Shown here: positions 39,514 to 59,843 of the stretch, piece after piece | Position numbering within the stretch: position 1 is the stretch's first letter | Layout of the letters: every line of letters starts with the position of its first letter | Assembly: GCA_028820635.1 (NCBI GenBank) | Contig: JAPPIG010000108.1 | Location: 113,733 to 177,732 of the forward strand | Source: Candidatus Poribacteria bacterium | Lineage (GTDB): Bacteria > Poribacteria > WGA-4E > WGA-3G | DNA: 64,000 nt | Reading direction: 5' to 3' | Translations under genes and position numbers: made by a program | The notes under the pieces: model-generated | Databases searched by the model: none | What the model saw: the letters and a program-made list of their open reading frames with translations, nothing else | What the model was told of the DNA's origin: nothing

Positions 39514-39562
39514 TTAACAGGAAACTTTGCTTGTGCGTGAAATGTGTTTGCATCTTGGTTTT

Positions 39563-40779: not shown

Positions 40780-40782
40780 CGG

Positions 40783-41538: not shown

Positions 41539-43008
41539 TTATAGCACAGCATTTTGCGCGGGATTGAGCAGTAGCGATGGCAAAATACCGATGAGCAAAA
41601 CGCCAATTGCAGCAAGGGCTAATCCGATGACTAAGGTTGAGGGGTATGGATTGAATTCCAACTCTTCTTCAGGTTCACGCATATACATTGTTACGACAAC
41701 GCGTAGATAATAGAAAGCTGAAATCGCAGTATTGACAGCACCAACGATGACAAGTGAGACAAGCCAAGTGTTAACTACATCTGGTTGAACAGCGGCTTGA
41801 ACAGCAGATTTGAAGATATAAAATTTTCCGACAAACCCTGCAGTTGGCGGAAAACCCGCAAGGGATAGAAGCATTAGCGTCATAAATATGCCGAGCAGAG
41901 GCTTACGGAAACCGAGTCCTGCGTAATCGGAAATCGTTAAACTTTCTCCATCAGCGGTTCTCGCTAAGATAACCGCACCGAAAGCACCGATATTCATAAC
42001 GCAGTAAACAAGGAGATAGAGCATTGCGCTTGATGTACCATCATCGTTTGCTGCAGCTAAACCTATTAACACATAACCTGCATGTGCAATACTTGAATAG
42101 GCGAGCATCCGTTTGATGTTTGTTTGCGCTATAGCAATAACATTACCAACTGTCATCGTCAACATCGCCAACAACACGATTACACCTGTCCATTCAGACT
42201 GTATATCTGGCAACGCTTCCATAAAAATCCTAATAAATGCTGCAAATCCAGCTGCTTTTGGTCCCGCAGAGATGAAGGCAGCGATTGTGGTAGGTGCGCC
42301 TTCGTAAACATCTGGTGCCCATTGGTGGAACGGAACGATAGCAACCTTAAACCCAAACCCAACGATAAGTAGGAATGTCCCTGCTAAGAGAAGTGGGGAT
42401 TGACTCTCAGTGGTGAGTTTCTCTGCAATCCCTGGAATACTTGTTGTTCCAGCAGCACCGTAAATTAAAGCGATTCCATAGAGGAAAAAGGCACTTGCAA
42501 ACGCACCAAGCAATAGATATTTCATTCCTGCTTCACTTGAAGCAGGGCTTTCACGGAAATAGCCTGCTAACACATACAACGACAACGACATTAGTTCTAA
42601 GCCGAGGAAAATGATAATCAACTCATTGCCAGCAGCCATTAACATCATGCCGAGCGTTGCAAGCAGGATAAGCAGATAGTACGGTCCCTGTTTTTTATCG
42701 CCTTTCCCTAAATAACTAATTGAGATGAGGGCAACCAAAATTGTTGAAACGAGGAAGATAATGTTGAAAAAGAGGGAGTAACTATCTATCCTGAACATGT
42801 CGTTGAACTGGGTTTGATCTGTCCCGGCTTGCAGCAGATTAATAGATGCCCATAAGGCAATCACTGCACCAACAATTGTCATCCATCCCAATGTCTTTTT
42901 TGAAATAGAGTCAATCATGTCAAAGACAAGGACAATAAGCAACGTTGAAACAATGACAAGTTGCGGCATTAACAATGACCAATTAATCTCAGGTATCTCA
43001 ACTGGCAT
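41539..43008 (-). CDS. nuoN: NADH-quinone oxidoreductase subunit N
   Basis: 489-aa polytopic membrane protein of the NuoN/ND2 family. It is the last gene of the nuo cluster. Confidence 0.85.
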   Translation of the reverse strand: MPVEIPEINWSLLMPQLVIVSTLLIVLVFDMIDSISKKTLGWMTIVGAVIALWASINLLQAGTDQTQFNDMFRIDSYSLFFNIIFLVSTILVALISISYLGKGDKKQGPYYLLILLATLGMMLMAAGNELIIIFLGLELMSLSLYVLAGYFRESPASSEAGMKYLLLGAFASAFFLYGIALIYGAAGTTSIPGIAEKLTTESQSPLLLAGTFLLIVGFGFKVAIVPFHQWAPDVYEGAPTTIAAFISAGPKAAGFAAFIRIFMEALPDIQSEWTGVIVLLAMLTMTVGNVIAIAQTNIKRMLAYSSIAHAGYVLIGLAAANDDGTSSAMLYLLVYCVMNIGAFGAVILARTADGESLTISDYAGLGFRKPLLGIFMTLMLLSLAGFPPTAGFVGKFYIFKSAVQAAVQPDVVNTWLVSLVIVGAVNTAISAFYYLRVVVTMYMREPEEELEFNPYPSTLVIGLALAAIGVLLIGILPSLLLNPAQNAVL

Positions 43009-43077
43009 TCAAAACCTCCGTTTTTAAACTCCGAAATAACAATAAATCATGAGCGTCAAACTTCATATATTTTTCTT

Positions 43078-44562
43078 CTAACGTAGGAACACGAATGTAA
43101 CGACCACAAAAAGCGGGAATAAAATAGCAACGGACCATAACATGTATCCAAAGAAACTCGGCATGCGGATACCGCTCTGTTCGGCAATTGATTTAACCAT
43201 AAAATTCGGTGCATTTCCGATATATGTATTTGCACCCATGAAAACTGCCCCGACAGATATTGCAGTTAGCAATCTGACAAACTCAAGGTGATGGGGCTCA
43301 GTCAATTGTCCTGACAAAATTTGTGGAACAACCGCCTCAGTAAGCTCTAATTTTCCAAGTGCGGTGTTGAAAAATGTTAAATAGGTTGGCGCATTATCTA
43401 AGAAACTGGACAAGATCCCAGTTATCCAGAAGTAGTGAGAGGGTTGCTGAATTGCCCCGATTAACCCGCTCAGTGCGCCTTTTGTACCGACACCGAGAAT
43501 TGTCAATGCCGGAATAATCGTCATAAAGATGCCAGCAAATACTTTTGCGACTTCTTCGATTGGTTCCCATGAGAACTCGTTTGATTGGCGTAATTCACCG
43601 CTAAAGGGCGTAAACTTGAGGGATAATAAACCCATCACGACAATCAACACGTCGCGTGCGATATTCTGCCAATATACATGAACACCGAGTACGTTGATAT
43701 CTCCCCACTTGAAAGAGCCACTCATTAAGACTGCCGCAACGATACCAAAGAGGAAAACGAGATTAAAAAGACCTTCAACACGAATCGGTTCGTTGACTCC
43801 ATCATCTGGGACGACACCACCTTCTCGTTTGAACATGAATGTGTCTATTATGAAAAAGAGAACGATTAAAATGACACTAATAAATACCATGTGTGGAAAG
43901 AGTGCGGTTGTTGTCCAGAAGAAAGGCACGCCGTGTAGAAATCCAAGAAAAAGTGGTGGATCGCCAAGAGGGGTTAAGGAACCACCGATATTGCTTACTA
44001 AAAAGATGAAGAAGACAATTAAATGCACCTTACTCTTTCGGTACGCATTTGCTTTAATCAACGGACGGATAAGGAGCATTGATGCGCCTGTTGTTCCTAT
44101 CCATGAGGCAATTACAGTGCCGATTAGCAATAACAGCGTGTTAACCATCGGTGTGCCGCGCAATGTTCCTCTGACGAGTATCCCGCCTGCAACCGTGAAC
44201 AAACCCCATAACAGTATGATGAACGGAATGTAGTCTATTAAGTAGATGTATAAAATATCGTGAAAAGCGTCACCTCTGAAAACGACAAGATATGGGATTG
44301 CGAATAATAACGCCCATGCCAATGACATTTTTCCACCATGGTGGACAAGAAAATGGGAATCTAACAGGAGTGGGAAAAGTGCGATTGAGAGGAGAATTCC
44401 TACAAAGGGAATAATGCTCCAGATAGGTAGTATGGAACCATCTACGCGAAAGTGTCCACCCTCGCCATGTGTCTCATCAGCAGCGAAGGTTTCCATTGAA
44501 ACTACTAAAGTAAGCCCCACGATGATGCATAATATAAGAAAAGAGGCAAGTTTTGACTTCAC
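43078..44562 (-). CDS. Ion-transporter-superfamily permease (ArsB/NhaD/CitMHS-like), embedded between nuoM and nuoN
   Basis: 494 aa with about 12 TM segments. The SLTPLGDPPLFLGF block resembles the ArsB/NhaD family. Its stop codon abuts the nuoM start at 44562. Confidence 0.5.
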   Translation of the reverse strand: MKSKLASFLILCIIVGLTLVVSMETFAADETHGEGGHFRVDGSILPIWSIIPFVGILLSIALFPLLLDSHFLVHHGGKMSLAWALLFAIPYLVVFRGDAFHDILYIYLIDYIPFIILLWGLFTVAGGILVRGTLRGTPMVNTLLLLIGTVIASWIGTTGASMLLIRPLIKANAYRKSKVHLIVFFIFLVSNIGGSLTPLGDPPLFLGFLHGVPFFWTTTALFPHMVFISVILIVLFFIIDTFMFKREGGVVPDDGVNEPIRVEGLFNLVFLFGIVAAVLMSGSFKWGDINVLGVHVYWQNIARDVLIVVMGLLSLKFTPFSGELRQSNEFSWEPIEEVAKVFAGIFMTIIPALTILGVGTKGALSGLIGAIQQPSHYFWITGILSSFLDNAPTYLTFFNTALGKLELTEAVVPQILSGQLTEPHHLEFVRLLTAISVGAVFMGANTYIGNAPNFMVKSIAEQSGIRMPSFFGYMLWSVAILFPLFVVVTFVFLR

Positions 44563-46160
44563 TATTTCGTCTGTGCCTCCTCTTCAATCAGTTGTAGGGT
44601 TGCGGTTTCGACTTTCAGAATAACAGGGTCTTGAGTTTCACCATCAATAATTACTTGTCCAACCTCTGGCGTATTGTCAGATTCATTTACTTTTACTTTT
44701 TCAGTAACCACACCCACTGATGCTTTCATCGGTTTCAGGAATGTATTCGGATGTACACCAATCCATACAATGAAAAGCAGTATCGGCAGTAAGACAACTA
44801 TTTCACGCGGTTTCAGGTCAGGCAAAGATGCGTTTGTGTTGTCTGGTGTACCAAACATGACCCGCTGGAACATCCATAGCATATAAACTGCTGCCAAGAT
44901 TACGCCTGTTGTTGCGAAGACCACGTACCATTTGGAGAATGCCCCGCCAACAAAACTGCCAAGCAATATCATAAATTCACCTACGAATCCGTTGAGTCCC
45001 GGCAGTCCGATGGATGACAGTGTTACAATCAAAAAGATGGTAGCGAAGATAGGCATTTTCTTTGCCAGTCCACCGAAGTCAACGATCATTCGGCTGTGCC
45101 GCCGTTCATAAATCATGCCGACCAAAAGGAACAGTGCGCCAGTGCTTAATCCGTGATTGATCATTTGCAAAACGCTTCCCTGAATACCTAAATGACTTTT
45201 TGAAAAAAGACCTAATACTACGAAACCGAGGTGACTGACACTGGAATATGCGACAAGTTTTTTCAGGTCCGGTTGTACCATTGCTACTAATGCCCCGTAA
45301 ATTATACCGATAATTGCAAGTGGCACTATCCAAGGTGTAGCGTCAGCTGCAGCTTGTGGGAAAAGCGGTAGGCAGAAGCGGACTATCCCGTACGTCCCCA
45401 TTTTAAGCAGCACCCCTGCCAGGATCACACTTCCGACTGTAGGTGCTTCAACGTGTGCATCTGGTAGCCATGTATGGAATGGGAAAAGAGGCACTTTAAT
45501 CGCAAAAGCAATGAAAAATGCAAGGAATAATAGATAGGAATGATCAAATGTGCCTTCTGTTGCTAATAGTGTTACGAGATCAAAGCTGTTACCGTTTTGG
45601 AAGTATAGTGCTAAAATGCCGACTAACATGAGCGCACTGCCTGCCATTGTGTAAAGTACGAACTTGATAGTGGCATAGATTCTACGTTCACCACCCCATA
45701 TTCCGATAAGGAAATACATCGGGATTAACATTGCCTCCCAGAACACAAAGAACAAGAATAGGTCTAAGGCACAGAAAACACCCAGCATTCCAGTTTCCAG
45801 CGCGAGGAGCGACATCATAAAACCGCTCAATCCTTTCTCAACCGAATTCCAAGCGGCGAGAATACATATTGGCGTTAGGAAAGTTGTAAGTAGCACTAAC
45901 CACAACGAAATACCGTCAATGCCGATGTGGTAACTTATACCTAAACCGGCAATCCACGGCAGTTTCTGGTAGAGTTGTGAGTCAGTTTGGAAACCATCAA
46001 TTCCTGCCTCAAATCCGGTGTAAAGCCCTATTGAGACAACGAATGTCAACAAACTGATGACGAGCGCGATGCCTTTAATAGCAGATGCGCCCATATTTCT
46101 GAGCAATGCTATCGCTATCACACCAAGCAGTGGTAAAAAAATAACTATTGAAAGTAGCAA
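44562..46160 (-). CDS. nuoM: NADH-quinone oxidoreductase subunit M
   Basis: 532-aa NuoM/ND4 family antiporter-like subunit (…WLPDAHVEAPT…). Confidence 0.9.
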   Translation of the reverse strand: MLLSIVIFLPLLGVIAIALLRNMGASAIKGIALVISLLTFVVSIGLYTGFEAGIDGFQTDSQLYQKLPWIAGLGISYHIGIDGISLWLVLLTTFLTPICILAAWNSVEKGLSGFMMSLLALETGMLGVFCALDLFLFFVFWEAMLIPMYFLIGIWGGERRIYATIKFVLYTMAGSALMLVGILALYFQNGNSFDLVTLLATEGTFDHSYLLFLAFFIAFAIKVPLFPFHTWLPDAHVEAPTVGSVILAGVLLKMGTYGIVRFCLPLFPQAAADATPWIVPLAIIGIIYGALVAMVQPDLKKLVAYSSVSHLGFVVLGLFSKSHLGIQGSVLQMINHGLSTGALFLLVGMIYERRHSRMIVDFGGLAKKMPIFATIFLIVTLSSIGLPGLNGFVGEFMILLGSFVGGAFSKWYVVFATTGVILAAVYMLWMFQRVMFGTPDNTNASLPDLKPREIVVLLPILLFIVWIGVHPNTFLKPMKASVGVVTEKVKVNESDNTPEVGQVIIDGETQDPVILKVETATLQLIEEEAQTK

Positions 46161-47246: not shown

Positions 47247-49154
47247 TTAAGCAAAAAACAGATAGTACGCGAGGAATAACACGATTCCTAGGACCATTGA
47301 CACAATATATACTTGGACAAGACCTGTTTGTAATCTTCGCAAAGTTCCGCCAATCACTCGGATAAGTGCAGCCACGCCATTAACAATTCCGTCAATAATC
47401 CCTGTATCAAACAATTTCCATAACAGAAAATGGGAAGCGTTTTTGATTGGCTGGACGATAAAAGTATTGTATAGCTCATCAATATAGAATTTGTTGGCAA
47501 CGAGTTTCTGTAATGCGTTGGTAGGTTCTGCAGAAGGCACACGATTCTTATAGCGTGTCCACGCAAATGTGATGCCTGCTATCCCAATGACTGATGAAAT
47601 TACCATGAACGGTATCGGACTACCCAATGCTTCGCCATGCCCGCCTTTAAAACCTGCTACTTTTTCAGTAAAGTGATGAAACCAACTATTGTGTCCGCCC
47701 ACCCCTAACAGCAATCCGATTAGGGCAGAGGGAATAGCAAGAATAGCCAACGGAATCCACATCACCGCAGGTGATTCATGCAGATGTGAAGCAACCTCAG
47801 GTTCAACGCGAGATTTCCCATAAAAAGTCACAAAGATTAGACGGAACATGTAGAACGCTGTCAGGAATGCAGTAATCAATCCAATGATGTAGATCGCTTT
47901 TCCGCTTCCCCATGTAACTCCCCACGCGCTATGTAAAATTTCATCCTTACTCCAGAAACCACTTAAGAACGGGGCACCTGCAATTGCCAACGCGCCAACC
48001 AAAAATGTAGCATGGGTTATCGGCAATTTGTTTCGCAATCCTCCCATTTTTCGTATATCTAATTCATTCGCCATTGCGTGCATCACGCTGCCAGCAGTCA
48101 AGAACATCAGCCCTTTAAAGAATGCATGTGTTACCAAATGGAAAATACCGGAAGCATACGCACCGACACCGACACCGACAAACATATACCCCAATTGGCT
48201 TACGGTGGAATAGGCGAGAATTCGTTTAATGTCATTCTGTTTGAGGGCTATTATTGCGGCGAACAAAGCGGTTAGGACACCGATCCAAGCGACAACTACT
48301 CCTGTTTCTGCGATGTTATACAGCACAGCGGAACGTGCAATCATATAGACACCCGCGGTAACCATTGTGGCGGCGTGTATTAATGCACTAACAGGGGTTG
48401 GACCTTCCATTGCATCTGGCAGCCAAACATAAAGAGGGAGCTGTGCGGATTTACCAACTGCTCCAACAAAGAGGAGCAAAGTCGCAAGCATAATTCCGTT
48501 TACACCAAAAACTATCTCATCACTTTTTGCTTCAGCTCCAGAAAATATCGTTGAGAAGTCAAGGGAGTTGAACACAGCAAACAACGTGAACATCCCTAAC
48601 AGAAAACCGAAATCACCGATTCTGTTGACAATAAACGCCTTTTTACCTGCATCCGTAGCGGATTGTTTCTCATACCAGAATCCTATTAGCAGATAGGAGC
48701 AGAGTCCAACACCTTCCCAACCAACAAACATCATCAGATAGTTGTTGCCGAGAACGAGGATAAGCATCGCGAAGACAAATAAATTTAGGTAGGCAAAATA
48801 GCGGGTATAGCCTGCATCTCCGTGCATATATCCGATGGAATATACGTGGATGAGAAATCCAACACCTGTAATTACCAACAACATCACAGTTGTCAAGGCA
48901 TCAACGTGGAAGCCGATGTTGAAAGTGAACGATTCACCTGCAATCCATGAATAAAGCACCTCATTGAACGGTTTCTCACTGCCCTGTACATTTACAAAAG
49001 CGATAATTGAACAGATTAAGGATACGAGTACGGCAAGTGCACCGATTGTCCCACTGAGTTTCTCGTTACCTTTTAACCATTTGCCAAACAATCCGTTAAT
49101 CAGAAACCCAACAAGTGGCGAAATTAATAAGATAATAATTAGACTATTTGACAT
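47247..49154 (-). CDS. nuoL: NADH-quinone oxidoreductase subunit L
   Basis: 635-aa NuoL/ND5 family protein (…WLPDAMEGPTPVSALIHAATMVTAG…). Confidence 0.9.
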   Translation of the reverse strand: MSNSLIIILLISPLVGFLINGLFGKWLKGNEKLSGTIGALAVLVSLICSIIAFVNVQGSEKPFNEVLYSWIAGESFTFNIGFHVDALTTVMLLVITGVGFLIHVYSIGYMHGDAGYTRYFAYLNLFVFAMLILVLGNNYLMMFVGWEGVGLCSYLLIGFWYEKQSATDAGKKAFIVNRIGDFGFLLGMFTLFAVFNSLDFSTIFSGAEAKSDEIVFGVNGIMLATLLLFVGAVGKSAQLPLYVWLPDAMEGPTPVSALIHAATMVTAGVYMIARSAVLYNIAETGVVVAWIGVLTALFAAIIALKQNDIKRILAYSTVSQLGYMFVGVGVGAYASGIFHLVTHAFFKGLMFLTAGSVMHAMANELDIRKMGGLRNKLPITHATFLVGALAIAGAPFLSGFWSKDEILHSAWGVTWGSGKAIYIIGLITAFLTAFYMFRLIFVTFYGKSRVEPEVASHLHESPAVMWIPLAILAIPSALIGLLLGVGGHNSWFHHFTEKVAGFKGGHGEALGSPIPFMVISSVIGIAGITFAWTRYKNRVPSAEPTNALQKLVANKFYIDELYNTFIVQPIKNASHFLLWKLFDTGIIDGIVNGVAALIRVIGGTLRRLQTGLVQVYIVSMVLGIVLFLAYYLFFA

Positions 49155-49157
49155 GTT

Positions 49158-49457
49158 TTATCCTTTCAGCGAATTAACTTCATCCACATTAATTGTTTCG
49201 CGATGCTTGAAAACACTTACAATAATTGCTAATCCGATTGCGACTTCCGCAGCAGCAACAGCCATCACAAAAAAGACGAACAACTGCCCCTCCACTTGAC
49301 CGAGGCTACGACTGATCGCTACAAAGGCGAGATTTGCTGCGTTTAGCATCAATTCAATACACATAAAGATGATAATCGCGTTTCTGCGGATGAGTACACC
49401 GATAACGCCTATTGTAAATAAGAGCGCGCTCAAGATGAGATAATACTCTAATGACAT
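49158..49457 (-). CDS. nuoK: NADH-quinone oxidoreductase subunit K
   Basis: 99-aa NuoK/ND4L family protein with 3 TM segments. Confidence 0.9.
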
Positions 49458-49458
49458 A

Positions 49459-49490
49459 TTAGTTGTCAGTTGTCAGTTGTCAGTTGTCAG
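49459..49490. repeat. Perfect tandem heptanucleotide repeat (AGTTGTC x4) immediately 5' of the nuoK start codon
   Basis: The sequence att-agttgtc-agttgtc-agttgtc-agttgtc-agagg abuts the nuoK ATG at 49457. Confidence 0.8.
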
Positions 49491-49618
49491 AGGATGGATT
49501 GTTAACCGTCCTCCTTCTGTCGTAACACACGAGTTCTGTAGGTGTTAGACAAGTTGAAAACTGATACCAATAACCGATGACTCCTTTGTTGTTGTAGGCA
49601 CTATCGCCTAAATCTGTT

Positions 49619-50167
49619 TTAGTTTTCAGTTTGGTTTTCGCGTTTTACCAAGACAATTACGCCAATCAATGCTGCCAACAAAATAAGCGAGGTAACCTCA
49701 AACGGTAAAAGGTATTTGCTGAACAAAAGTTCACCAATATCATAAGTTTCAATCGGATTATTAGTGAGAGCAGCTGCCTTTTCCTGTGCTGCTTCCGATC
49801 CAACCTCAGTATTATTGAGGGCATTCACCGCAATATAGATGCCTTGAGCAGCCAAGAGGATACCCAAAATTATCGCAACACCTTTCAGTTTCCCTGTGAG
49901 AGCACCTTTCGCAGAGAGTGTGCCAAGGTTCAGCAGCATAATTACAAAGAGGAACAATACCATGATTGCTCCAGCATACACAATAACCTGAACAGCAGCG
50001 ACGAAGTGTGCGCCCAAAATCACAAACAACCCTGCTTGTGCGAAAAACGTTACAATAAGCGAAAGCGCACTATATATCGGGTGCCGAAACGAGATAACAG
50101 CGATTGCACCAATTAGTGACACAGCACCAAAGATAAAAAATAGAATCATTTCTGGATTCATTTGCAC
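49619..50167 (-). CDS. nuoJ: NADH-quinone oxidoreductase subunit J
   Basis: 182-aa NuoJ/ND6 family protein. Confidence 0.85.
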   Translation of the reverse strand: MQMNPEMILFFIFGAVSLIGAIAVISFRHPIYSALSLIVTFFAQAGLFVILGAHFVAAVQVIVYAGAIMVLFLFVIMLLNLGTLSAKGALTGKLKGVAIILGILLAAQGIYIAVNALNNTEVGSEAAQEKAAALTNNPIETYDIGELLFSKYLLPFEVTSLILLAALIGVIVLVKRENQTEN

Positions 50168-50172
50168 GCCTC

Positions 50173-51411
50173 CTATTCTACTGCGTCCAAGCCGCGCAGT
50201 GGTGCTGCGGCGGGAGTGTTTTGCGCTGCAGATTTACTGTTATTGTCCATAGCAAGCATCCCTGCTACGATTGCTACGACAATAAACGCTGCAACTACAT
50301 TGCCAACACCTATCCAAAGACGATTACCTTTCGTTATTATATATAATGTGCCGGTAACAACGATTGACGATAAGGCAACAGGCAACAAGAATTTCCAACC
50401 GAAATTCATGAGTTGGTCATAGCGGAAACGCGGAAGTGTCCAGCGTACCCAGATGAAAACAAACAAGAAAATTCCTGTTTTAACAAAGAAGATAGCAAAC
50501 GAGATAAGTCCAGCAAGTACGGATCCCTCTCCACCTATGTTTTCCAATCCGAAAAAGTGCCAACCGCCTAAGAACAGTGTTACAACCACTGCCGAACCGA
50601 CAATCATGCTCATATATTCTGCCATAAAGAATATAGCGAATTTCATACTGCTGTATTCGGTGTGGTAACCTGCGACAAGTTCCTGCTCTGCTTCAGCAAG
50701 GTCAAATGGCAATCGGTTTGTTTCTGCGAACACTGCTGTTGTAAACGCAAGAAATGCTGGAAAGTGTATCAGGAAATTCCATTCCCACGGGTTTGCACCC
50801 TGTCCCTCTGCAATTTCCCGAAGTTTGAGCGATTCGGAGAGCATCAAAACACCGATAATTGCCAATCCGAGCGTCAATTCGTAACTTATCATCTGCGCGG
50901 ATGAACGCAAACCACCCAAAAGTGAGTATTTGTTGTTTGATGCCCACGCACCTATAACAACACCATACACACCGAGAGACGTTATTGCTAAGATATATAA
51001 AATGCCTATATTGAGGTCAGCGATCTGAAGCGGAATTTCATATCCTGCTATCGTCATAGAACTTCCGAATGGTACGACAGCTACTATAATCATTGCTGGG
51101 ACCAGAAGCATTGCTGGGGCAAGCACGTAAAGTGGCTTATCTACGTGATTTGGGATGAGGTCTTCCTTAAAGAGGAACTTAATCCCATCTGCAATAGGTT
51201 GAAGTAGTCCTTGTGGTCCGACGCGATTCGGTCCGAGTCGATCCTGCATCCATCCGCTCACACGGCGTTCAGACCAAATCATCGCCATCACACCAATAAT
51301 CAGCAGATGTGCAACGATGAGAATTTTGACGATTGAACTGATGATAAAAACGTGAAGAGGTAAACTTTCCATATTTCTCCTTCTTGATGACGCGCAGATT
51401 GAAATTAGCAA
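50173..51411 (-). CDS. nuoH: NADH-quinone oxidoreductase subunit H (with N- and C-terminal extensions)
   Basis: NuoH/ND1 blocks (MQDRLGPNRVGP, LAEAEQELVAGYHTEYS) are present. At 412 aa it is about 70 aa longer than typical. The true start may be the internal MESLP. Confidence 0.85.
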   Translation of the reverse strand: MLISICASSRRRNMESLPLHVFIISSIVKILIVAHLLIIGVMAMIWSERRVSGWMQDRLGPNRVGPQGLLQPIADGIKFLFKEDLIPNHVDKPLYVLAPAMLLVPAMIIVAVVPFGSSMTIAGYEIPLQIADLNIGILYILAITSLGVYGVVIGAWASNNKYSLLGGLRSSAQMISYELTLGLAIIGVLMLSESLKLREIAEGQGANPWEWNFLIHFPAFLAFTTAVFAETNRLPFDLAEAEQELVAGYHTEYSSMKFAIFFMAEYMSMIVGSAVVVTLFLGGWHFFGLENIGGEGSVLAGLISFAIFFVKTGIFLFVFIWVRWTLPRFRYDQLMNFGWKFLLPVALSSIVVTGTLYIITKGNRLWIGVGNVVAAFIVVAIVAGMLAMDNNSKSAAQNTPAAAPLRGLDAVE

Positions 51412-51412
51412 G

Positions 51413-53068
51413 TTAGTCTAACTTAATGCCTGCATCTCCTATGTTTTGATGTGTTGCGTCACCGTAACCCGCTACATTCTCTGCAATTGCTATGGCAATT
51501 TCACCCGCGAAATGGTAATCAATTTCTCCACCGAGTCGCTTCGCAAGCTGCTGCGTAATCTGCCAATCTACTTGTGCTTCACCTGGAGGGTCAATTGTCT
51601 TTCGAATCCGTTGCACCCATCCGGTAGAATTGGTAAACGTGCCATCTTTTTCTGCGAAAGTTGTTCCCGGTAGTACCACATCGGCTAATTCCGTAACCGC
51701 TGATGGTAAAACATCTTGCACGATGAGAAAATCAACCTTTTCTAATGCGTTTCTTTCGGTATCTTCAAGCGCGCGTTCTGGCACACCACTAACGATATAA
51801 ACGACTTTCGCACTTGCGACCTTTTCCCAAAGTGCATCGCCTTCTAAAACGACATTTCCGTTTGCAGAGCCGAGTATTGTTCGCGCACCTGCGGTGTTTG
51901 GATTCTTGTCCGCTTCTATGGTAAATTGTGGGAATTTGTGCTCTTCACCGGGTAGTTGCCCAAAGAGCCCCAATTGTGTTGTCTTTAGCACATCGTGTGC
52001 AAACTGCTGTAAAACATAGTTGTCTTCATTCGTGCCTTGTGCAGAACCGATAACAACAATATCTGCAGCATCAACTTCGGATAAATTTTCGGTAATTAAC
52101 GTCAACGCATCTGCCCACTGCGTTGTTACAAGTTCGCCATCAACCTTCTTAAGGGGTAGTTGGAGACGGTCATCGCTGTTGACATAGTGGTAACCGAGTC
52201 TGCCATCATCACACATCCAGTGTTGGTTAATATCTTCATGGAAGCGAGGTTTGATACGGTACACACCGTCTGCCTTATACTCAACCGTGACATTACATCC
52301 GACGCTACATCCTGAACAGATACTATTCGCCTTTTCCATAAACCACGGACGAGATTTGAACAAAAAATCTTTGCTAATCAACGCACCGACAGGACAAATA
52401 TCAACGACATTTCCAGCGAGTTTATTATCAAGAAGTTGTATGGGAGTTCCTTCATGGCTTCGGGGAATGTCAATCTCATCGTGGGAACCGCGATTTATCA
52501 ACCCAAGTTCACCACTGCCTGAAACCTCATCACAGAATCGGATACACCGCGTGCAAACGATACAACGTGTGGAATAGAGCAAAATATCCGGCCCCAGGTC
52601 TTTTTTCGGAGGCACGTTTTTGACTTCTATATAGCGGCTTTTATCGTGCCCATGCCGGTAGCTGAAGTCTTGCAGGTCGCATTCACCTGCTTGGTCACAG
52701 ACGGGGCAATCAAGAGGATGATGTACGAGCAAGAATTCCAAAATATCTTCTCTTGCCTTTATGACACGGGAACTGTCTGTTCGGACGATAGCGTCATATT
52801 TTTCTTCTAACTTTCTTTCTGGTGGTGCGGATCGGACTGTCAGTGTACAACCCGTAGCTAATTGTCGGGCTGGACCGATTGTACCTGGGGGAGCACCTGG
52901 TATGGGACCGTAAGGTTCAACGAGGCACATCCGGCAATTCGCTGGACGACTCAACCCTGCGTGGTAGCAGTAGTGAGGCACCTCAATGCCGTGTTCCCGT
53001 GCAGCCTCAACTATATTTGTTCCGTCTTCAACCTCTATTTCAAGGTCATTCAGTTTAATAAACGCCAT
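51413..53068 (-). CDS. nuoG: NADH-quinone oxidoreductase subunit G (short 551-aa form)
   Basis: Has the N-terminal 2Fe-2S and 4Fe-4S cysteine clusters (CYHAGLSRPANCRMCLVE, …CPVCDQAGEC…, CIVCTRCIRFC). It lacks the long C-terminal domain of the 900-aa forms. Confidence 0.85.
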   Translation of the reverse strand: MAFIKLNDLEIEVEDGTNIVEAAREHGIEVPHYCYHAGLSRPANCRMCLVEPYGPIPGAPPGTIGPARQLATGCTLTVRSAPPERKLEEKYDAIVRTDSSRVIKAREDILEFLLVHHPLDCPVCDQAGECDLQDFSYRHGHDKSRYIEVKNVPPKKDLGPDILLYSTRCIVCTRCIRFCDEVSGSGELGLINRGSHDEIDIPRSHEGTPIQLLDNKLAGNVVDICPVGALISKDFLFKSRPWFMEKANSICSGCSVGCNVTVEYKADGVYRIKPRFHEDINQHWMCDDGRLGYHYVNSDDRLQLPLKKVDGELVTTQWADALTLITENLSEVDAADIVVIGSAQGTNEDNYVLQQFAHDVLKTTQLGLFGQLPGEEHKFPQFTIEADKNPNTAGARTILGSANGNVVLEGDALWEKVASAKVVYIVSGVPERALEDTERNALEKVDFLIVQDVLPSAVTELADVVLPGTTFAEKDGTFTNSTGWVQRIRKTIDPPGEAQVDWQITQQLAKRLGGEIDYHFAGEIAIAIAENVAGYGDATHQNIGDAGIKLD

Positions 53069-53135
53069 AAATATTACTCCAATGACTTGGCATAGCCCTC
53101 AATATTCTGTCAGTTTCCAACTGGGATAATCAGTT

Positions 53136-54611
53136 CTACAGGTCAGCAAACTCCTTTGGAATAAACCGCTGTTGATACGCGTAATTTTCCTCTGGCGGCA
53201 CTGTCGCTTCAGCAACAGGTAGCGTAACCAATTTACCTTCTCGTATTGCGGCTTCAAATTCAGGTCTGAACTTGCGCATATAACTGACTGCCGGCCACGA
53301 AACAGCAATACCAAAGACGCAGATAGTATTCCATGTCATTGTATCCACATTCGCAATGTTGTTCGCAACGTTTTCCAGCAGATCAAGGTCTTCGTAGATT
53401 TCCTCTGTTTCACCAGTATCACCCCATCTGCCGCTTTCGGTGACACCGAACTTGGGTCGTGTGATAGTGGTTTGTCTGCCTTCTCCATCGGCAATCCGTT
53501 GGACAATATCACGGACCCACGGTGTGCCCCATCGACACGGTGTGCACTGCCCACACGATTCATGCGCGTAGAATTTCATGATATTGAGTAAGCAGTCAAC
53601 GATATTCCGGGTCTCATTCATTACAATGATGCCACCCGAACCTAACATTGATTTTGCAAGTGTGAGCGATGTAAAATCAAGTCGTGTATCTAACTCGTAA
53701 TGCGTCAAAATCGGTGCGGAACTTCCACCAGGGATCACCGCTTTGACCTCTTCACCACGCAAACCGCCTGCTACCTCAATAAGCTCTGTGCTTGTCAAAC
53801 CGAGTTCCAATTCATATACACCCGGTTCGTTGACATCGCCGCTGATACAGTAGAGTTTTGTGCCTGTATTTGGATCCGCTTTTGGTGGGTCAAATCGCGT
53901 ATCACCGTACGTCGGTCCCATCTGTGTGTACCATTCTACACCATTCCCTACGATAAAGGGTAGGTTGCACAAGGTCTCCACATTCTGCACGACGGTGGGT
54001 TTCATAAACACACCTTGAACAGCAGGGAAAGGCGGTTTGTTGCGAGGTTGCCCTCGTTTCCCCTCAAGGGATTCAATCAATCCTGTCTCTTCACCACAAA
54101 TATATGCACCAGCACCCGGATGTGAATAGATGTTAATATTTAGCCCCGTGTCTCGAACATTTTCACCAAGGTAACCCTGTTCGTAAGCCTCCTTAATGGC
54201 GGTATCTAACATCTTTTTTCCAAGTGTGAATTCACCGCGAATGTAAACATAAGTGGTCTCAATTCCCATTGCGTAGCAACAGATTAAGATACCTTCTATC
54301 AACAGATGTGGGTTTTTCTCTAAGACGTAGCGGTTGCTGAAGGTGCCGGGCTCGCTTTCGTCAGCGTTGCAACAAAGATAGCGCGGCTCAATATCCCTTG
54401 GGACAAAACTCCATTTTTCCCCAGTAGAAAAGCCGGCACCGCCTCTGCCTTTCAACCCCGCATCCCACACCATTTGCGCGATTTCTTCAGGTTGATATTC
54501 GGCAATCGCCTTTTCAAAACGGGTGTAACCCTCATATTGTCTAAAGACATCAAAGGTGTTTATATTCGGTACATCCAGATGCTCGTAGAGAATCCGTCTT
54601 TCTTGAACCAT
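53136..54611 (-). CDS. nuoF: NADH-quinone oxidoreductase subunit F
   Basis: 51-kDa subunit blocks (GRGGAGFSTGEKW, CGQCTPCR). Length is 491 aa. Confidence 0.9.
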   Translation of the reverse strand: MVQERRILYEHLDVPNINTFDVFRQYEGYTRFEKAIAEYQPEEIAQMVWDAGLKGRGGAGFSTGEKWSFVPRDIEPRYLCCNADESEPGTFSNRYVLEKNPHLLIEGILICCYAMGIETTYVYIRGEFTLGKKMLDTAIKEAYEQGYLGENVRDTGLNINIYSHPGAGAYICGEETGLIESLEGKRGQPRNKPPFPAVQGVFMKPTVVQNVETLCNLPFIVGNGVEWYTQMGPTYGDTRFDPPKADPNTGTKLYCISGDVNEPGVYELELGLTSTELIEVAGGLRGEEVKAVIPGGSSAPILTHYELDTRLDFTSLTLAKSMLGSGGIIVMNETRNIVDCLLNIMKFYAHESCGQCTPCRWGTPWVRDIVQRIADGEGRQTTITRPKFGVTESGRWGDTGETEEIYEDLDLLENVANNIANVDTMTWNTICVFGIAVSWPAVSYMRKFRPEFEAAIREGKLVTLPVAEATVPPEENYAYQQRFIPKEFADL

Positions 54612-54699
54612 ATTTTTCCTCTACATATTGTCTCTTATAATTTTGTAGGTTGGGTAGAACACAGTGAAACCCAACAAGTTCCGATTTATGACATTTCCT

Positions 54700-55224
54700 C
54701 TAATTGGGAAGTTGCTCTAATATTTCATCAACCTTTTCGGGTGTCAAATTTTTATATAAATCGTCATTCACCATGATAACGGGGGCGACATCACACGATG
54801 CAAGGCACTCAACTTTCATCAAGGTGAACTTGCCATCATCAGTAGTGCCTTTTGCGAGATTTGTTTCTGATGCCACGTCAGTACTCAGTTTTTCTTTCAG
54901 ATGATCCAAAACTACTTTACAGTCGCGCAATGCACACGGCAGCGTATGACAGACGCGAATAACATATTTCCCCACCGGTTCCTCAAAGAACATCGGATAG
55001 AAGGTTACCACGTCTTTTACCTTCATCACAGAAAGTTCCAACAGTTCCGCTACATACTTCATGACTGCAGGCGTAATATAACCTTCCTGCCGTTGTGCCA
55101 GGTGGAGCGTTGGCAGCATCGCTGCTTCTTTGACGGGATACCGACCAATCAGTTCGTCAAATTCTCGTTTGTTTTCTTCGTTAAACTGAAATGGTGTTTC
55201 GATTTGTATTATTTCATCTGACAT
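54700..55224 (-). CDS. nuoE: NADH-quinone oxidoreductase subunit E
   Basis: 24-kDa subunit thioredoxin-like 2Fe-2S protein (…VCHTLPCALRDC…ECLASCDVAPV…). Confidence 0.9.
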   Translation of the reverse strand: MSDEIIQIETPFQFNEENKREFDELIGRYPVKEAAMLPTLHLAQRQEGYITPAVMKYVAELLELSVMKVKDVVTFYPMFFEEPVGKYVIRVCHTLPCALRDCKVVLDHLKEKLSTDVASETNLAKGTTDDGKFTLMKVECLASCDVAPVIMVNDDLYKNLTPEKVDEILEQLPN

Positions 55225-55376
55225 CTATGTTTTCCTTTTCTTGGCTATCAGCCGTCAGCAACAGTGTTAGCATCTACTACGGATAACACCCTTCAATTGC
55301 CTCATAAATGTTTTCAAGCAATTCTTCAAAAGTGTTACTTTGTGTAGCACAAGCGGTGATTTTTAGTTCATGGTAT

Positions 55377-56177
55377 TTAACTGCGTGCTTTCAAACGTGC
55401 AATTTCTTCACGAAGTTGTGCGACTTCTGCTTCAGCGTTTTCTGCGCGTGTGGCTTCTTGCTCTGCGCGTGTTTCTGCATTTTCTCGTGCGATGGTTTCC
55501 TGTTCAGCGTGTGCCTCTGCAATTTCTGTGCGTTCTGCACGTGTCTGAAGCCATTCACCCGCAACAGGATCATAAATCGCTATCTCTCCATCGCGAATAT
55601 GGAAATCCAAATCCAAAACTGAGGCACGAAAACCTCCCCGTTCATCCGCAGAAATAGCGACATACTCACCATCCACTAACGTAAATCCCATCATCGGAGA
55701 TGGTAAATACAACCCCTCTGCATCATATAAGAAGTAATTCTGTATTCCCAATGAAGCATAAACATCCTTCTTCTCACCTAAGTCTTTATCGTAAGTGCTT
55801 TTACTGGAGAACTCCATCACGAAATCGGGTGCTTTTCCTTCCTCCCATGTTTTATACGTCAGACGCAGCTTTGGGTTTATACCAAAACAGACGAGCACAT
55901 CCGGAGATATAGACTTCCGGGGATCCCCTTCGCTGTAATACATCATTAGGTCGCCAGAGATATAGACTTCCGGATTTTGTGCGAAATGTGTCTCAAGTGC
56001 TTGCAGCGTCCATATTAGTAATCTTAAATGATAATCGCTTGCTGCCATCGGCTTTCCATCTTCAGAAGGGTAAAGGTCAACATCGTCAGTAGGGACATAA
56101 GGAATAAAGGTATCTTTTGAATACGGGCGTGCCATTATGTTTCTCCTTTGTTGTCCGATGCGTAAAAACGAAGACAA
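55377..56177 (-). CDS. Uma2-family (DUF820) restriction-endonuclease-fold protein, copy A. The true start is probably the internal MARPY Met at about 56135.
   Basis: Uma2 core (…DVLVCFGI…PDFVMEFSS…) with an A/E/R-rich coiled C-terminal tail. It is about 97% identical at the DNA level over roughly 600 bp to copy B. Confidence 0.7.
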   Translation of the reverse strand: MSSFLRIGQQRRNIMARPYSKDTFIPYVPTDDVDLYPSEDGKPMAASDYHLRLLIWTLQALETHFAQNPEVYISGDLMMYYSEGDPRKSISPDVLVCFGINPKLRLTYKTWEEGKAPDFVMEFSSKSTYDKDLGEKKDVYASLGIQNYFLYDAEGLYLPSPMMGFTLVDGEYVAISADERGGFRASVLDLDFHIRDGEIAIYDPVAGEWLQTRAERTEIAEAHAEQETIARENAETRAEQEATRAENAEAEVAQLREEIARLKARS

Positions 56178-56199
56178 TTAGTTTCATGTAATTTTAGTA

Positions 56200-56859
56200 T
56201 CACTTTTTCTTGAGAACCATTTTCTGATCAGAATAAGTCAGCGTTAACGTATCTCCTGTGACGTTCCATGTATATTCAATTCCGCTGTCGAATATAAAAT
56301 CTGAAGGATTCTGTTCAAATCCACTTTTCGATTCCGCTGCCAAATCCGCTTCTAACTGTTCTACGGTTTTACCTACTATTTGTGCTGCCCATACCTCTTT
56401 TGGTTCAAGCGTTACTTCAACATCCATTTTGATATCTTCTGTAGTGATTTTTAAGGTTTCCTCATCTGCAATATACATTCCTGCTATAGTTTGAGTGAGT
56501 TTCTGGGTCATTGACGAAGCAGGTGGTCCCGGGTATTTCTCTGATACCTCGAACGCTAAATTACCTGTCAAAGAACCATCATCTTCAAAAACCCAATTAT
56601 TTGAAATAAGTGTGGATTCTTGTTCAGCTTCTATATCGTCCGATTGTTCAGGTGCGACATTTTGGGAGAAAAATGTTTCAAACATTTCACCATTAATTGA
56701 GACAATTTCCCAAGAACTTCCAACAAAGTCGAAGTCCACAATAACATCTTCTTTTTTCTTTTCTTCATCTTCACTGCAACCGACCGCGAAAATGGAGAAC
56801 AAACTTATCAAGACTATAGCCGAGGTTGTAAAAAGTAGTTTCATGCTAATTTCAGCCAT
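56200..56859 (-). CDS. Lipoprotein of unknown function (219 aa), flanked by the two Uma2 genes
   Basis: Signal peptide plus lipobox (FAVGCSE), followed by an acidic, serine-rich mature region. Confidence 0.55.
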   Translation of the reverse strand: MAEISMKLLFTTSAIVLISLFSIFAVGCSEDEEKKKEDVIVDFDFVGSSWEIVSINGEMFETFFSQNVAPEQSDDIEAEQESTLISNNWVFEDDGSLTGNLAFEVSEKYPGPPASSMTQKLTQTIAGMYIADEETLKITTEDIKMDVEVTLEPKEVWAAQIVGKTVEQLEADLAAESKSGFEQNPSDFIFDSGIEYTWNVTGDTLTLTYSDQKMVLKKK

Positions 56860-56973
56860 GAGTTAGTATTTTCCCAAACTGAATCCTGTTTTTCTCAGGG
56901 TCTCTCATGTCAAAACACGCGAGACCATCTTCATTCTTCAAAGAATTATACCGCCAAGATGCATAATTGTCTG

Positions 56974-57864
56974 TTACTCCGTACGCAGGCGTTTAATTTC
57001 TGCTAAAGCCTTAGCGAGTTCTGCCTCAGCGTTTTGCCGTGCGTTAGTTTCTTGTTCGGCGTGTGCTTCAGCGTTTTCTGCGCGTGCTTCAGCGTTTTCT
57101 GCGCGTGCTTCAGCAATTTCTGTACGTTCTGCACGCGTCTGAAGCCATTCACCCACAATAGGATCATAAATCGCTATCTCTCCATCACGAATATGGAAAT
57201 CCAAATCCAAAACCGAAGCGCGAAAACCTCCTCGTTCATCCGCAGAAATAGCGACATACTCACCATCCACTAACGTGAACCCCATCATCGGAGATGGTAA
57301 ATACAAACCCTCTGCATCATATAAGAAGTAATTCTGTATTCTCAATGAAGCATAAACATCCTTCTTCTCGCCTAAGTCTTTATCATAAGTGCTTTTACTG
57401 GAGAACTCCATCACGAAATCGGGTGCTTTTCCTTCCTCCCATGTTTTATACGTCAGACGCAGCTTTGGGTTTATACCAAAACAGACGAGCACATCCGGAG
57501 ATATAGACTTCCGGGGATCCCCTTCGCTGTAATACATCATTAGGTCGCCAGAGATATAGACTTCCGGATTTTGTGCGAAATGTGTCTCAAGTGCTTGCAG
57601 CGTCCATATTAGTAATCTTAAATGATAATCGCTTGCTGCCATCGGCTTTCCATCTTCAGAAGGGTAAAGGTCTATATCGTCAGTAGGGGCATAAGGAATA
57701 GAGGTATCTTTTGCATAAGGGCGTGCCATTATGTTTCTCCTTAAAAAGTTTATACTACTTTCGTTCCTATTTCCCAACTTCATCCATAAGTTAGTATTTT
57801 CCCACAAACTGAATTCGGTTTTTCTCAGGGTCTCTGATATCAAAAATCCCATAACCACCATCAT
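56974..57864 (-). CDS. Uma2-family (DUF820) protein, copy B. The annotated long ORF probably starts at the internal MARPY Met, about 57730.
   Basis: Near-identical to copy A across the core. Its C-terminal tail is built from 21-bp DNA repeats (gcgtgcttcagcgttttctgc x about 3) that encode AENAEARAENAEARAENAEA. Confidence 0.7.
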   Translation of the reverse strand: MMVVMGFLISETLRKTEFSLWENTNLWMKLGNRNESSINFLRRNIMARPYAKDTSIPYAPTDDIDLYPSEDGKPMAASDYHLRLLIWTLQALETHFAQNPEVYISGDLMMYYSEGDPRKSISPDVLVCFGINPKLRLTYKTWEEGKAPDFVMEFSSKSTYDKDLGEKKDVYASLRIQNYFLYDAEGLYLPSPMMGFTLVDGEYVAISADERGGFRASVLDLDFHIRDGEIAIYDPIVGEWLQTRAERTEIAEARAENAEARAENAEAHAEQETNARQNAEAELAKALAEIKRLRTE

Positions 57865-58147
57865 TTTCCAAAGGTCTTAAACGTAACCCCTTTGACTTTA
57901 AATGTTGGTGCATTGCATTCACACTTTCAACCTGAAGCATTAACTTTTGCCTACCCTCATTTGGTTTACTTGCACTATGGAGACACAGTTTACACTCGCC
58001 TGTATCAAACCGGTAAAAACGATTTTCTGGAAATGGTTGATCTTCTTCTGGTGTTAATCCGATTACATCTCTATAAAATGCAATGACCTTTTTCATATCT
58101 TTTACAAAAAGCATGACTCCGCCAAGACTAACTTTGATTTCTGACAT
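57791..58147 (-). CDS. VOC-family (glyoxalase/bleomycin-resistance/dioxygenase fold) small protein
   Basis: 118 aa. VMLFVKDMKKVIAFYRDVIGL is a typical VOC beta-alpha-beta-beta-beta N-terminus. It may overlap the Uma2-B ORF only because that ORF is over-extended. Confidence 0.6.
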   Translation of the reverse strand: MSEIKVSLGGVMLFVKDMKKVIAFYRDVIGLTPEEDQPFPENRFYRFDTGECKLCLHSASKPNEGRQKLMLQVESVNAMHQHLKSKGLRLRPLENDGGYGIFDIRDPEKNRIQFVGKY

Positions 58148-58215
58148 ATCTGTACCTCTATCGTATCTATACCATTTAAGGGGCGATCCAATTTCTCTTC
58201 TATGTAAGGTTATTA

Positions 58216-59412
58216 TTACCTATCCAACTCTCCGGCAATTACATTTAAACTTCCCAACACAGCCACCGTATCCGATACCATGCCGCCTTCCAACATGTGC
58301 GGCAGTGCTTGGAAATGGAAGAAACTCGGTGGACGAATTCTAATACGATAGGCAGTCCCGCTTCCATCGCTCACAATATAAAACCCTAATTCTCCATTTG
58401 GCGATTCTGTGGCGCAATAATGGTCACCTTTGGGAGGCTGCACACCGTGTCCATCCATAACAATTTTGAAATGATGGATTAATCCTTCTATATGCCCATA
58501 AGCATCCGATTTGTCTGGCATCATGATTTTGTTGTCTTCTACACTAAATGGACCATCCGGCAGATTATCCAATGCTTGTCCAACGATACCGCAGCTTTGA
58601 ATCATCTCCTCCATTCGGACTAAATATCGGTCATACGCATCACCGTTGGTCCCAACTGGCACATCAAATTTTATTTCATTGTAAGAGGAATAAGGCTCCG
58701 CCTTGCGGATATCGTGTGCGATACCTGTTGCACGTAGACAGGGACCGGTTAACCCATAATTAATCGCATCTTCAGAGGAAATTGTGCCAACCCCTTTTGT
58801 TCTATCCATCCAAATTCGGTTGCGGGTTAACAACGTATGCGTTTCTTTCAACGCTTTTGGGAAATTGGTAATGAAATCACGGGTATCCGTTTCAAATCCA
58901 TCATAAAGATCGCGAAAAACACCACCGACACGGGTGTAACTTGTTGTCAACCGTGCGCCTGTGGTTTTCTCAAAAATACTGTAGAGTTTTTCGCGCTCGC
59001 GGAAACTGTAGAGAAATACTGAAAACGCCCCTAAATCCAATGCTGCAGTACCAAGCCATAGCAGATGGTCAGCCAGTCGAGAAAGTTCTGCCATCAAAAT
59101 TCGGATGTATTGACACCGCTTTGGCACTTCAATACCGAGCAATTGTTCCACTGCAAGCACATACCCAAAATTGTTAGACAATGGCGACAGATAATTCATC
59201 CGGTCAGTAACAACGATGTACTGATTGTAGTCTAAATGTTCACCCAGTTTCTCAAACCCAGTATGTAAGTATCCAGCGTGTGGTGTTGCCTTCAAAATGG
59301 TTTCACCATCAAGTTCCAATACGATACGAAGGGTGCCGTGTGTAGCAGGGTGTTGCGGTCCGAAGTTGAGAACCATCTTCTCGCCTGTTGTGCGTTCCAT
59401 CCCACCTTGCAT
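58216..59412 (-). CDS. nuoD: NADH-quinone oxidoreductase subunit D
   Basis: 49-kDa subunit (…FGPQHPATHGTLR…). Length is 398 aa. Confidence 0.9.
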   Translation of the reverse strand: MQGGMERTTGEKMVLNFGPQHPATHGTLRIVLELDGETILKATPHAGYLHTGFEKLGEHLDYNQYIVVTDRMNYLSPLSNNFGYVLAVEQLLGIEVPKRCQYIRILMAELSRLADHLLWLGTAALDLGAFSVFLYSFREREKLYSIFEKTTGARLTTSYTRVGGVFRDLYDGFETDTRDFITNFPKALKETHTLLTRNRIWMDRTKGVGTISSEDAINYGLTGPCLRATGIAHDIRKAEPYSSYNEIKFDVPVGTNGDAYDRYLVRMEEMIQSCGIVGQALDNLPDGPFSVEDNKIMMPDKSDAYGHIEGLIHHFKIVMDGHGVQPPKGDHYCATESPNGELGFYIVSDGSGTAYRIRIRPPSFFHFQALPHMLEGGMVSDTVAVLGSLNVIAGELDR

Positions 59413-59424
59413 AGATTGCTCCTT

Positions 59425-59547
59425 TTATAAAATTGACTTACGCTTTTCCGTTTTGAGTTGTTGATATTTATTTTGAACAAGTCCTAAAACTTTGCATACA
59501 ACACCTATCCAAACACAAGCGAAAAAAGTTAAAATAATTACACCCAT
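59425..59547 (-). CDS. Candidate small hydrophobic peptide (40 aa, MGVIILTFFACVWIGVVCKVLGLVQNKYQQLKTEKRKSIL) in the nuoC-nuoD spacer
   Basis: I translated this ORF manually. It has a GAGG motif 8 nt upstream of the ATG, is single-TM-like, and falls below the ORF-track length cutoff. Confidence 0.25.
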   Translation of the reverse strand: MGVIILTFFACVWIGVVCKVLGLVQNKYQQLKTEKRKSIL

Positions 59548-59591
59548 AATTCTAACCTCAATATTTTCAATACTATTCGTTGCATTTTAAA

Positions 59592-59729
59592 CTATTGTGG
59601 GGGTGAATTAAAGTGTTTATACAACCACCGCACAAGATCCGCGCAAAAGTAAACAAACGCCCAGAATACATAGACTGTCCCGATAACCAAGAATGACATT
59701 TTGACGGTATTCAAAATCTTTCTTTTCAT
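59592..59729 (-). CDS. Candidate small hydrophobic peptide (45 aa, MKRKILNTVKMSFLVIGTVYVFWAFVYFCADLVRWLYKHFNSPPQ) in the nuoC-nuoD spacer
   Basis: I translated this ORF manually. It has no clear Shine-Dalgarno site and is single-TM-like. Confidence 0.2.
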   Translation of the reverse strand: MKRKILNTVKMSFLVIGTVYVFWAFVYFCADLVRWLYKHFNSPPQ

Positions 59730-59843
59730 TTTTTCGAAATACCAGTTCTAAATGTATCAATGAACCATTCATTAGCGTTTGATTTTAATGTAGTTTCCGT
59801 CTATCCAACCTATAACAAAATGTCTTCTTTTTCAAACTCAAGG

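Follow-up and report, generated by a model that had tools for sequence, protein, structure and literature searches.

In Rhodothermus marinus, the gene of an antiporter is reportedly co-transcribed with genes of respiratory complex I, within the nqo10-14 operon. Going by its title in the reference list of PMC8063116, the paper of Melo et al. (2005, BBA 1709:95) places antiporter and pterin-4a-carbinolamine dehydratase (PCD) genes among the complex I genes of this organism. Here we describe a related arrangement in a 64-kb stretch of DNA from Candidatus Poribacteria bacterium (contig JAPPIG010000108.1). We call this whole stretch the window, and positions are those of the window unless a locus of another genome is named. 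The gene in question is an open reading frame (ORF) of 494 aa at 43078..44562 on the minus strand, with a GTG start, located between the complex I genes nuoM and nuoN. It codes for a permease of the CitMHS_2 family (PF16980) of the ion-transporter (IT) superfamily, a probable NhaE-type Na+/H+ antiporter.

The R. marinus exchanger gave E. coli resistance to Na+ but not to Li+ at pH 6.5-7.5 (Melo 2006, BBRC 348:1011; PMC9408914), and the residues to which Li+ binding is ascribed in NhaD are missing from it (PMC9408914). It was first named a homologue of 'NhaD', and on its account the NhaE family (Transporter Classification, TC, 2.A.111) was proposed within the IT superfamily (PMC9408914). The NhaE homologue of Neisseria meningitidis was characterised as well, and only for the NhaE proteins of R. 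marinus and N. meningitidis was Na+/H+ antiport, or the rescue of Na+-sensitive cells, reported (PMC9408914). Complex I of R. marinus, in turn, was suggested to export H+ and import Na+ (PMC3464577; PMC5662883).

The likeness of the window to R. marinus is twofold. Both have a gene of an ArsB/NhaD-like antiporter, made of a single polypeptide, among the genes of the complex I membrane arm, and both hosts are members of the Fibrobacterota-Chlorobiota-Bacteroidota (FCB) group or are often put close to it. The window differs in the position of the antiporter gene (between nuoM and nuoN), in the host, which is a Poribacterium, and in the PCD gene (pcd): tblastn with the PCD proteins of a Balneola genome and of a Chitinophagales metagenome-assembled genome (MAG) found nothing in the window. 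Of the two marks of an R. marinus-type cluster, the window has the antiporter gene inside the nuoJ-N genes and lacks pcd.

Other known systems are more distant. NhaD of Vibrio and Halomonas (TC 2.A.62) resembles the permease in its superfamily, IT (PMC9408914 for the superfamily), in an INDY-like predicted fold, in size and in the extrusion of Na+, a probable function for the permease, but falls in another Pfam family (NhaD/ArsB models versus CitMHS_2). The arsenite efflux permease ArsB (PDB 10tp) is just 11% identical to the permease and gave no PDB sequence match, and there are no ars genes nearby. NuoL, NuoM and NuoN, the operon neighbours, and the Mrp antiporter move cations and protons, as the permease presumably does; however, they belong to Proton_antipo_M (PF00361), unrelated in fold and family to the CitMHS_2 permease. 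An identity of the permease as an extra NuoM/MrpD-like subunit was ruled out by this difference in family and fold.

The permease gene, its position and its predicted fold

The complex I operon lies wholly on the minus strand of the window, in the order nuoA, B, C, D, Uma2, an unknown ORF, Uma2, nuoE, F, G, H, J, K, L, two DUF5069 genes, nuoM, the permease gene and nuoN. A first reading of the DNA letters by a model (the original prediction) had called an ORF of 494 aa at 43078..44562 between nuoM and nuoN. Coordinates and length were confirmed exactly, and both neighbours were identified by profiles: nuoM (44562..46160, minus strand) directly upstream by TIGR01972 (E=3e-186, residues 3-488 of 532), and nuoN (41539..43008, minus strand), directly downstream and the final gene of the operon, by TIGR01770 (E=3e-134).

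The same reading had the stop of the permease coincide with the start of nuoM at 44562. The geometry is the reverse: on the minus strand, the TAG stop of nuoM (44564-44562) and the GTG start of the permease gene (44562-44560) overlap by one base. The minus-strand letters of this TAGTG junction (44560..44564), read from the sequence, are 5'-aaaTAGTGaag-3', with base 44562 being both the last of the TAG and the first of the GTG. A stop/start overlap inside the complex I operon, as had been claimed, does exist, with a geometry of translational coupling. A Shine-Dalgarno-like GAGGAGG (44576..44582, minus strand), seen in the sequence and in the comparison with relatives, falls within the 3'-terminal part of nuoM, 13 nt ahead of the GTG of the permease gene. 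The spacer of 69 nt between the permease gene and nuoN carries GGAGG at 43015-43019 ahead of the nuoN ATG. Scans for promoters and terminators around the permease gene gave numbers of sites not above those in shuffled sequence, and were uninformative for this reason; no terminator-like site was seen in the permease-nuoN spacer.

We also observed that NuoM of the window has an acidic, hydrophilic C-terminal extension of about 44 aa beyond TIGR01972 (44562-44700), the codons of which provide the GAGGAGG ribosome-binding site of the permease gene. In other nuo-linked loci the NuoM ORFs had 511-539 aa, exceeding the 486 positions of the model under every gene arrangement.

The gene order was compared in seven Poribacteria loci besides the window (L001, L004, L007 and L084-L087), with permeases 83-89% identical to the query. 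All seven, as well as the window, had the order nuoM, CitMHS_2, nuoN with a nuoM-permease junction of 0 or -1 nt. The permease start codon was GTG in six of the seven (ATG in L007), and GAGGAGG, or AAGGAGG in two loci, was found inside nuoM about 13 nt upstream of the permease start in six of the seven. The original prediction had proposed to look for this gene order in relatives and had named absence of the gene from close relatives as evidence to the contrary; every close relative examined had the same order. The nuoL-nuoM gap of the same seven loci was variable, with 0-2 DUF5069 genes and N6_Mtase-like, MethyltransfD12, EcoRI-like or RE_R_Pab1 genes. In an operon that otherwise tolerates variable insertions, the permease gene thus stands out as a fixed cistron.

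The permease matched PF16980 with 585 bits (gathering cut-off 25.7; E=1e-175) over positions 4-448 of the 448 of the profile, that is at full length, while the second Pfam match, to CitMHS, was weak (34 bits). This profile match and the predicted fold described below agree with the ArsB/NhaD/CitMHS-like class given in the original prediction. A PADLOC scan of the permease and the DUF5069 proteins matched nothing. The nearest database proteins, with 84-100% identity to the permease, came from Candidatus Poribacteria assemblies. An exhaustive search among representatives of 50%-identity clusters detected 4026 relatives at E<=0.001, of which 913 passed E<=1e-30; two peptide patterns, one of them YIGNAPNF, retrieved 599 relatives; and CitMHS_2 members from different phyla kept 46-69% identity.

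The gene is under purifying selection. The ratio of nonsynonymous to synonymous substitution rates (dN/dS) of the permease against four Poribacteria orthologues was 0.04-0.06, compared to 0.06-0.10 for nuoL, nuoM and nuoN in the same genome pairs, figures that are qualitative because dS was near saturation. Given this ratio and the thousands of homologues, the ORF is not a chance one.

An AlphaFold model of the permease (predicted local distance difference test score, pLDDT, 78; predicted template modelling score, pTM, 0.78) had an N-terminal helix resembling a signal peptide, about 11 membrane helices and two re-entrant hairpins (helix-loop-helix), the tips of which bear invariant motifs. The twelve transmembrane segments of the original prediction are therefore an approximation. 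The signal-peptide-like segment, read from the translation, covers residues 1-27 (44482..44562, minus strand), with a putative cleavage site after MKSKLASFLILCIIVGLTLVVSMETFA and ahead of ADE. A hydrophobic N-terminal segment ending in AxA was also present in homologues from Poribacteria and Craterilacuibacter.

Three invariant motifs were located, all on the minus strand, by an alignment of 50 sequences together with the secondary structure of the model. NxGGxLTPxGDPPLFLGF (residues 191-208, 43939..43992) forms the tip of the first hairpin and includes D201; SxxLDNAPTY (residues 385-394, 43381..43410) falls at a helix break and includes D389; YIGNAPNF (residues 447-454, 43201..43224) forms the tip of the second hairpin. 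Conserved residues of the alignment were D201, D240, E337, D389, R166, R175 and H180.

The arrangement of the hairpins in the model resembles that of ArsB and of INDY-type elevator transporters. A Foldseek search with the model found VcINDY at E=9e-6, and the closest solved folds were ArsB, INDY and its divalent anion/sodium symporter (DASS) relatives, Pho90 and the dicarboxylate transporter DiT1. The inverted repeat and the two re-entrant hairpins with conserved motifs, by which the ArsB/DASS-type elevator fold of the IT superfamily is recognised, are both seen in the model, and the permease is predicted to be an elevator-type carrier of this superfamily.

Linkage to nuo genes in other phyla

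A wider survey was made by a profile-guided scan with one genome per GTDB species, which gave 80 loci with flanks of up to 8 kb. Genes of the nuo membrane arm (nuoJ-N) were found near CitMHS_2 in 16 of these species-level loci by tblastn with the Nuo proteins of the window. By a back-of-envelope estimate, a random gene would be located that near a nuo cluster in roughly 1% of cases (a cluster of about 15 kb with two flanks of 8 kb in a genome of about 4 Mb), which is not a statistical test. In a neighbour-joining tree built without bootstrap, the nuo-linked loci were spread over at least four separate clades, and the Poribacteria permeases clustered with those of L008, L014 and L009. Most of the family, namely the members from Proteobacteria, Desulfobacterota and Moorella, was not near nuo genes in this survey.

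The ORF maps showed four arrangements. The order nuoM, permease, nuoN with a 4-nt overlap of nuoM and the permease gene was present in L008 and in L014 (Neomarinimicrobiota), where a universal stress protein (Usp) gene is inserted ahead of nuoN. The permease gene came first, directly ahead of nuoJ-K-L-M-N, in L030 (KSB1), L037 and L015. It was divergent from nuoL in L064 (Balneola), where it is positioned between nuoK and nuoL, and in L044 (the Chitinophagales MAG). Finally, it was found 2-7 kb downstream of nuoN in L043, L060, L071, L072 and L076 (Marinimicrobia) and in the MAGs L009 and L046.

The two loci with the divergent arrangement bring the comparison back to R. marinus. Both have a Pterin_4a gene between nuoM and nuoN on the minus strand, at 3772-4053 in L064 (E=4e-30) and at 3564-3836 in L044 (E=2e-27). 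With CitMHS_2 beside nuoL and Pterin_4a in the slot between nuoM and nuoN, this is the gene pair that Melo et al. name in their title. Within the Bacteroidota/Chlorobiota group, Rhodothermota and Balneolota are neighbouring phyla. The slot held by Pterin_4a in L064 and L044 is the one held by the antiporter gene in Poribacteria.

A search seeded with the Balneola CitMHS_2 returned Balneolaceae only. A search seeded from Neisseriales returned CitMHS_2 proteins of several Neisseria species, named 'sodium:proton antiporter'; N. meningitidis was not among the top 120 matches. Some of the homologues found by this search were labelled 'UIT6 family (TC 9.B.53)'.

Among other neighbours of CitMHS_2, the genes of ApbE (11 loci) and NqrM (7 loci), maturation factors of the Na+-translocating NADH:quinone reductase (Na+-NQR), were recurrent. 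In Marinimicrobia, ApbE and a divergent NqrM-like gene precede CitMHS_2, and in L060 (4350-7297) both stand directly after nuoN; loci with a neighbourhood of this type besides L060 were L043, L046, L067, L069, L071, L072, L076 and L079. Usp genes were located directly downstream of CitMHS_2 in seven loci: L014 (9403-9876, the gene between the permease and nuoN), L009 (4958-5401), L018 (9451-10335), L083, L019, L025 and L031. In Desulfobacterales, the homologues had PAS histidine kinase and response regulator genes as neighbours. Genes of the ars, cit or dct type were not seen beside CitMHS_2 in the annotated loci.

The nuo-adjacent members, compared to the unlinked ones, had neither an added domain nor a signature that they convincingly share. 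Just three positions discriminated weakly between the two sets, and they were judged not meaningful, as the sequences share ancestry.

The arrangement is a new example of the oddity published for R. marinus in 2005. It had been called atypical in the original prediction, a description that stands relative to operons of the E. coli type but is overstated in view of the 2005 publication and the recurrence in several phyla. In our literature searches we found no description of the nuoM-permease-nuoN arrangement in Poribacteria; newly documented here are the position between nuoM and nuoN and a phylogenetic spread broader than in the searchable literature.

Candidate role and competing explanations

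The reading that we favour, with a somewhat better than even chance of being right, is that the permease is a separate, NhaE-like Na+/H+ antiporter, encoded in Poribacteria by a fixed nuo cistron and expressed together with the complex I membrane arm. Judging by sequence and by analogy, Na+/H+ antiport is its most likely function. This substrate pair is the best reading because of the annotations of homologues (NCBI 'sodium:proton antiporter'; JGI 'Na+/H+ antiporter NhaD/arsenite permease-like protein'), the invariant acidic residues, the Na+-NQR maturation genes in the neighbourhood and the R. marinus precedent. The acidic residues at hairpin tips and helix breaks (D201, E337 and D389), together with the conserved D240, favour a cation over an anion. 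We consider the equation of CitMHS_2 with NhaE a well-supported inference, though the support is indirect and comes from the pair of CitMHS_2 and pcd genes in the Balneola nuo cluster. As a name for this family, the 'putative citrate transport' of Pfam probably misleads.

The permease would be translated directly after NuoM through the stop/start overlap, followed by NuoN. Complex I would pump protons out, and the co-expressed antiporter, a separate protein of the elevator type like its ArsB and INDY-type relatives, would admit protons in exchange for the extrusion of Na+. A part of the respiratory proton-motive force could in this way be converted into a sodium gradient, and the cytoplasmic Na+ and pH of a marine organism could be controlled. 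By its place in the operon, the supply of the antiporter would be matched to that of the complex I membrane arm. The original prediction had suggested a coupled Na+/H+ or substrate transport function; the Na+/H+ role is retained as the best reading, while a mechanistic coupling to complex I beyond co-expression was left unsupported.

Several observations weigh against the antiporter assignment. Neither the single protein nor a profile matched a solved structure in searches of PDB sequences, and no NCBIfam model, the curated NhaD and ArsB models included, matched the permease at E<=0.01. Arsenite, dicarboxylates or phosphate are the substrates of the nearest solved folds, so the fold leaves that of the permease unfixed. 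The names given to homologues in the source databases are automated annotations, and the Pfam label itself speaks of citrate. The likeness to the R. marinus protein is one of description and gene context, so that the homology is indirect. Residence in the operon is, taken alone, weak functional evidence because the nuo operons of Poribacteria tolerate unrelated insertions (Uma2, DUF5069, restriction-modification).

It is conceivable, though unlikely in our estimate, that the permease carries another substrate, such as arsenite, phosphate, sulfate or a di- or tricarboxylate, and owes its place in the operon to respiratory co-regulation or to historical accident. The Pfam name and the closest solved folds (ArsB, INDY/DASS, Pho90, DiT1) would fit such a carrier, as would the histidine kinases and response regulators beside the Desulfobacterales homologues, which are often found in substrate-sensing transport systems. 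However, DASS anion carriers bear uncharged SNT-type motifs where the permease has the invariant D201, D389 and E337. The neighbours ApbE, NqrM and Usp, and the lack of adjoining ars, cit or dct genes, also argue against an anion, as does the Na+ resistance given by the R. marinus protein, a homologue by context that is encoded in the operon (PMC9408914). A decidedly less probable explanation makes the permease a physically attached accessory module, or a supercomplex partner, of complex I, with Na+/H+ exchange tied directly to turnover. Such a module could explain why complex I of R. marinus has been postulated to take up Na+ while it expels H+ (PMC3464577; PMC5662883); translation of the gene is coupled to that of nuoM, the gene is set between those of two antiporter-like subunits, and several phyla share the linkage to nuoJ-N, with the gene at varying positions. 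In a specific form of this idea, which we regard as very unlikely, an NhaE-like antiporter docks on or next to the NuoM/NuoN end and recycles Na+ against pumped protons, in Poribacteria and other lineages in or near the FCB group. Attachment is at odds with the lack of an added domain or convergent signature in the nuo-adjacent members, with the many family members that have no nuo genes nearby, and with the self-contained dimers of the solved relatives (a parallel dimer for ArsB and a dimer for Pho90, according to the titles of the structure matches). The position of the gene differs by lineage as well, with the opposite strand in Balneola and L044 and a distance of 2-7 kb in Marinimicrobia, and a varying position fits co-regulation better than an obligate subunit. 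The absence of a domain or signature, the variation in position and strand and the many unlinked members together favour independence of the permease from complex I.

There is finally the question whether the gene has any functional tie to complex I. In the same operon, nuoD and nuoE are separated by an unknown ORF and two Uma2 genes, nuoL and nuoM are separated by the DUF5069 pair, and in relatives the nuoL-nuoM gap has restriction-modification-like genes; the permease gene might thus be a neutral passenger, another insertion in a tolerant operon. We rate this as highly improbable because of its fixed position (the same junction in eight of eight Poribacteria loci, with a conserved start context), the strong constraint (dN/dS of about 0.05) and the recurrence of the nuo linkage (16 of 80 loci in at least four clades, compared to the roughly 1% estimated for a random gene).

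Other features of the locus and meaning of the arrangement

The rest of the nuo operon, nuoA to nuoL, occupies 47247..61265 on the minus strand by Pfam and NCBIfam assignments. It is without nuoI: neither a CxxCxxCxxxCP ferredoxin motif matching NuoI nor a tblastn match was found in the operon or elsewhere in the window. Within 49457-51411, the gene nuoH (50173-51411, 412 aa), with a C-terminal extension of about 60 aa beyond the Pfam match, is directly followed by nuoJ (49619-50167). The Poribacteria loci L001 and L085 likewise go from nuoH to nuoJ, and nuoI is in place in L008 and L014.

The interruption between nuoD and nuoE (55377-57864) consists of two putative endonucleases of the Uma2 family (PF05685) around an ORF of 219 aa that had no family match; the Uma2 proteins matched weakly the PADLOC candidate defence family PDC-S03. 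The tandem pair of DUF5069 genes (PF16798) between nuoL and nuoM is located at 46192-47200, and its proteins had no PADLOC or NCBIfam match. Downstream of nuoN, at 37006-41358, we found genes of an extracytoplasmic function (ECF) sigma factor, a zf-HC2 anti-sigma factor, a DUF4252 protein and a large DUF4252/CBM9/Omp85 protein; this cluster is syntenic in several Poribacteria genomes (L001, L086 and L087). Far from the operon, near 8637, a plus-strand frame gives a Cys/Pro-rich translation of low complexity (…CPCCPSCPGCCPSCPSCPGC…) opposite an ORF of 1166 aa on the minus strand (8349-11849), and this probably reflects a repetitive coding region of the minus strand.

With the loci described here, the observation in the single organism R. 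marinus becomes a pattern that includes Poribacteria, Marinimicrobia, KSB1 and relatives of the Bacteroidota. The pattern supplies candidates for how marine bacteria that use complex I turn proton-motive force into a sodium gradient, and it offers a route to ask whether the disputed effects of Na+ on complex I stem from a co-encoded antiporter. If the docking of such an antiporter on complex I were true, the Na+/H+ exchange attributed to R. marinus complex I, and with it the long dispute on Na+ transport by complex I, would be explained by a separate co-encoded protein.

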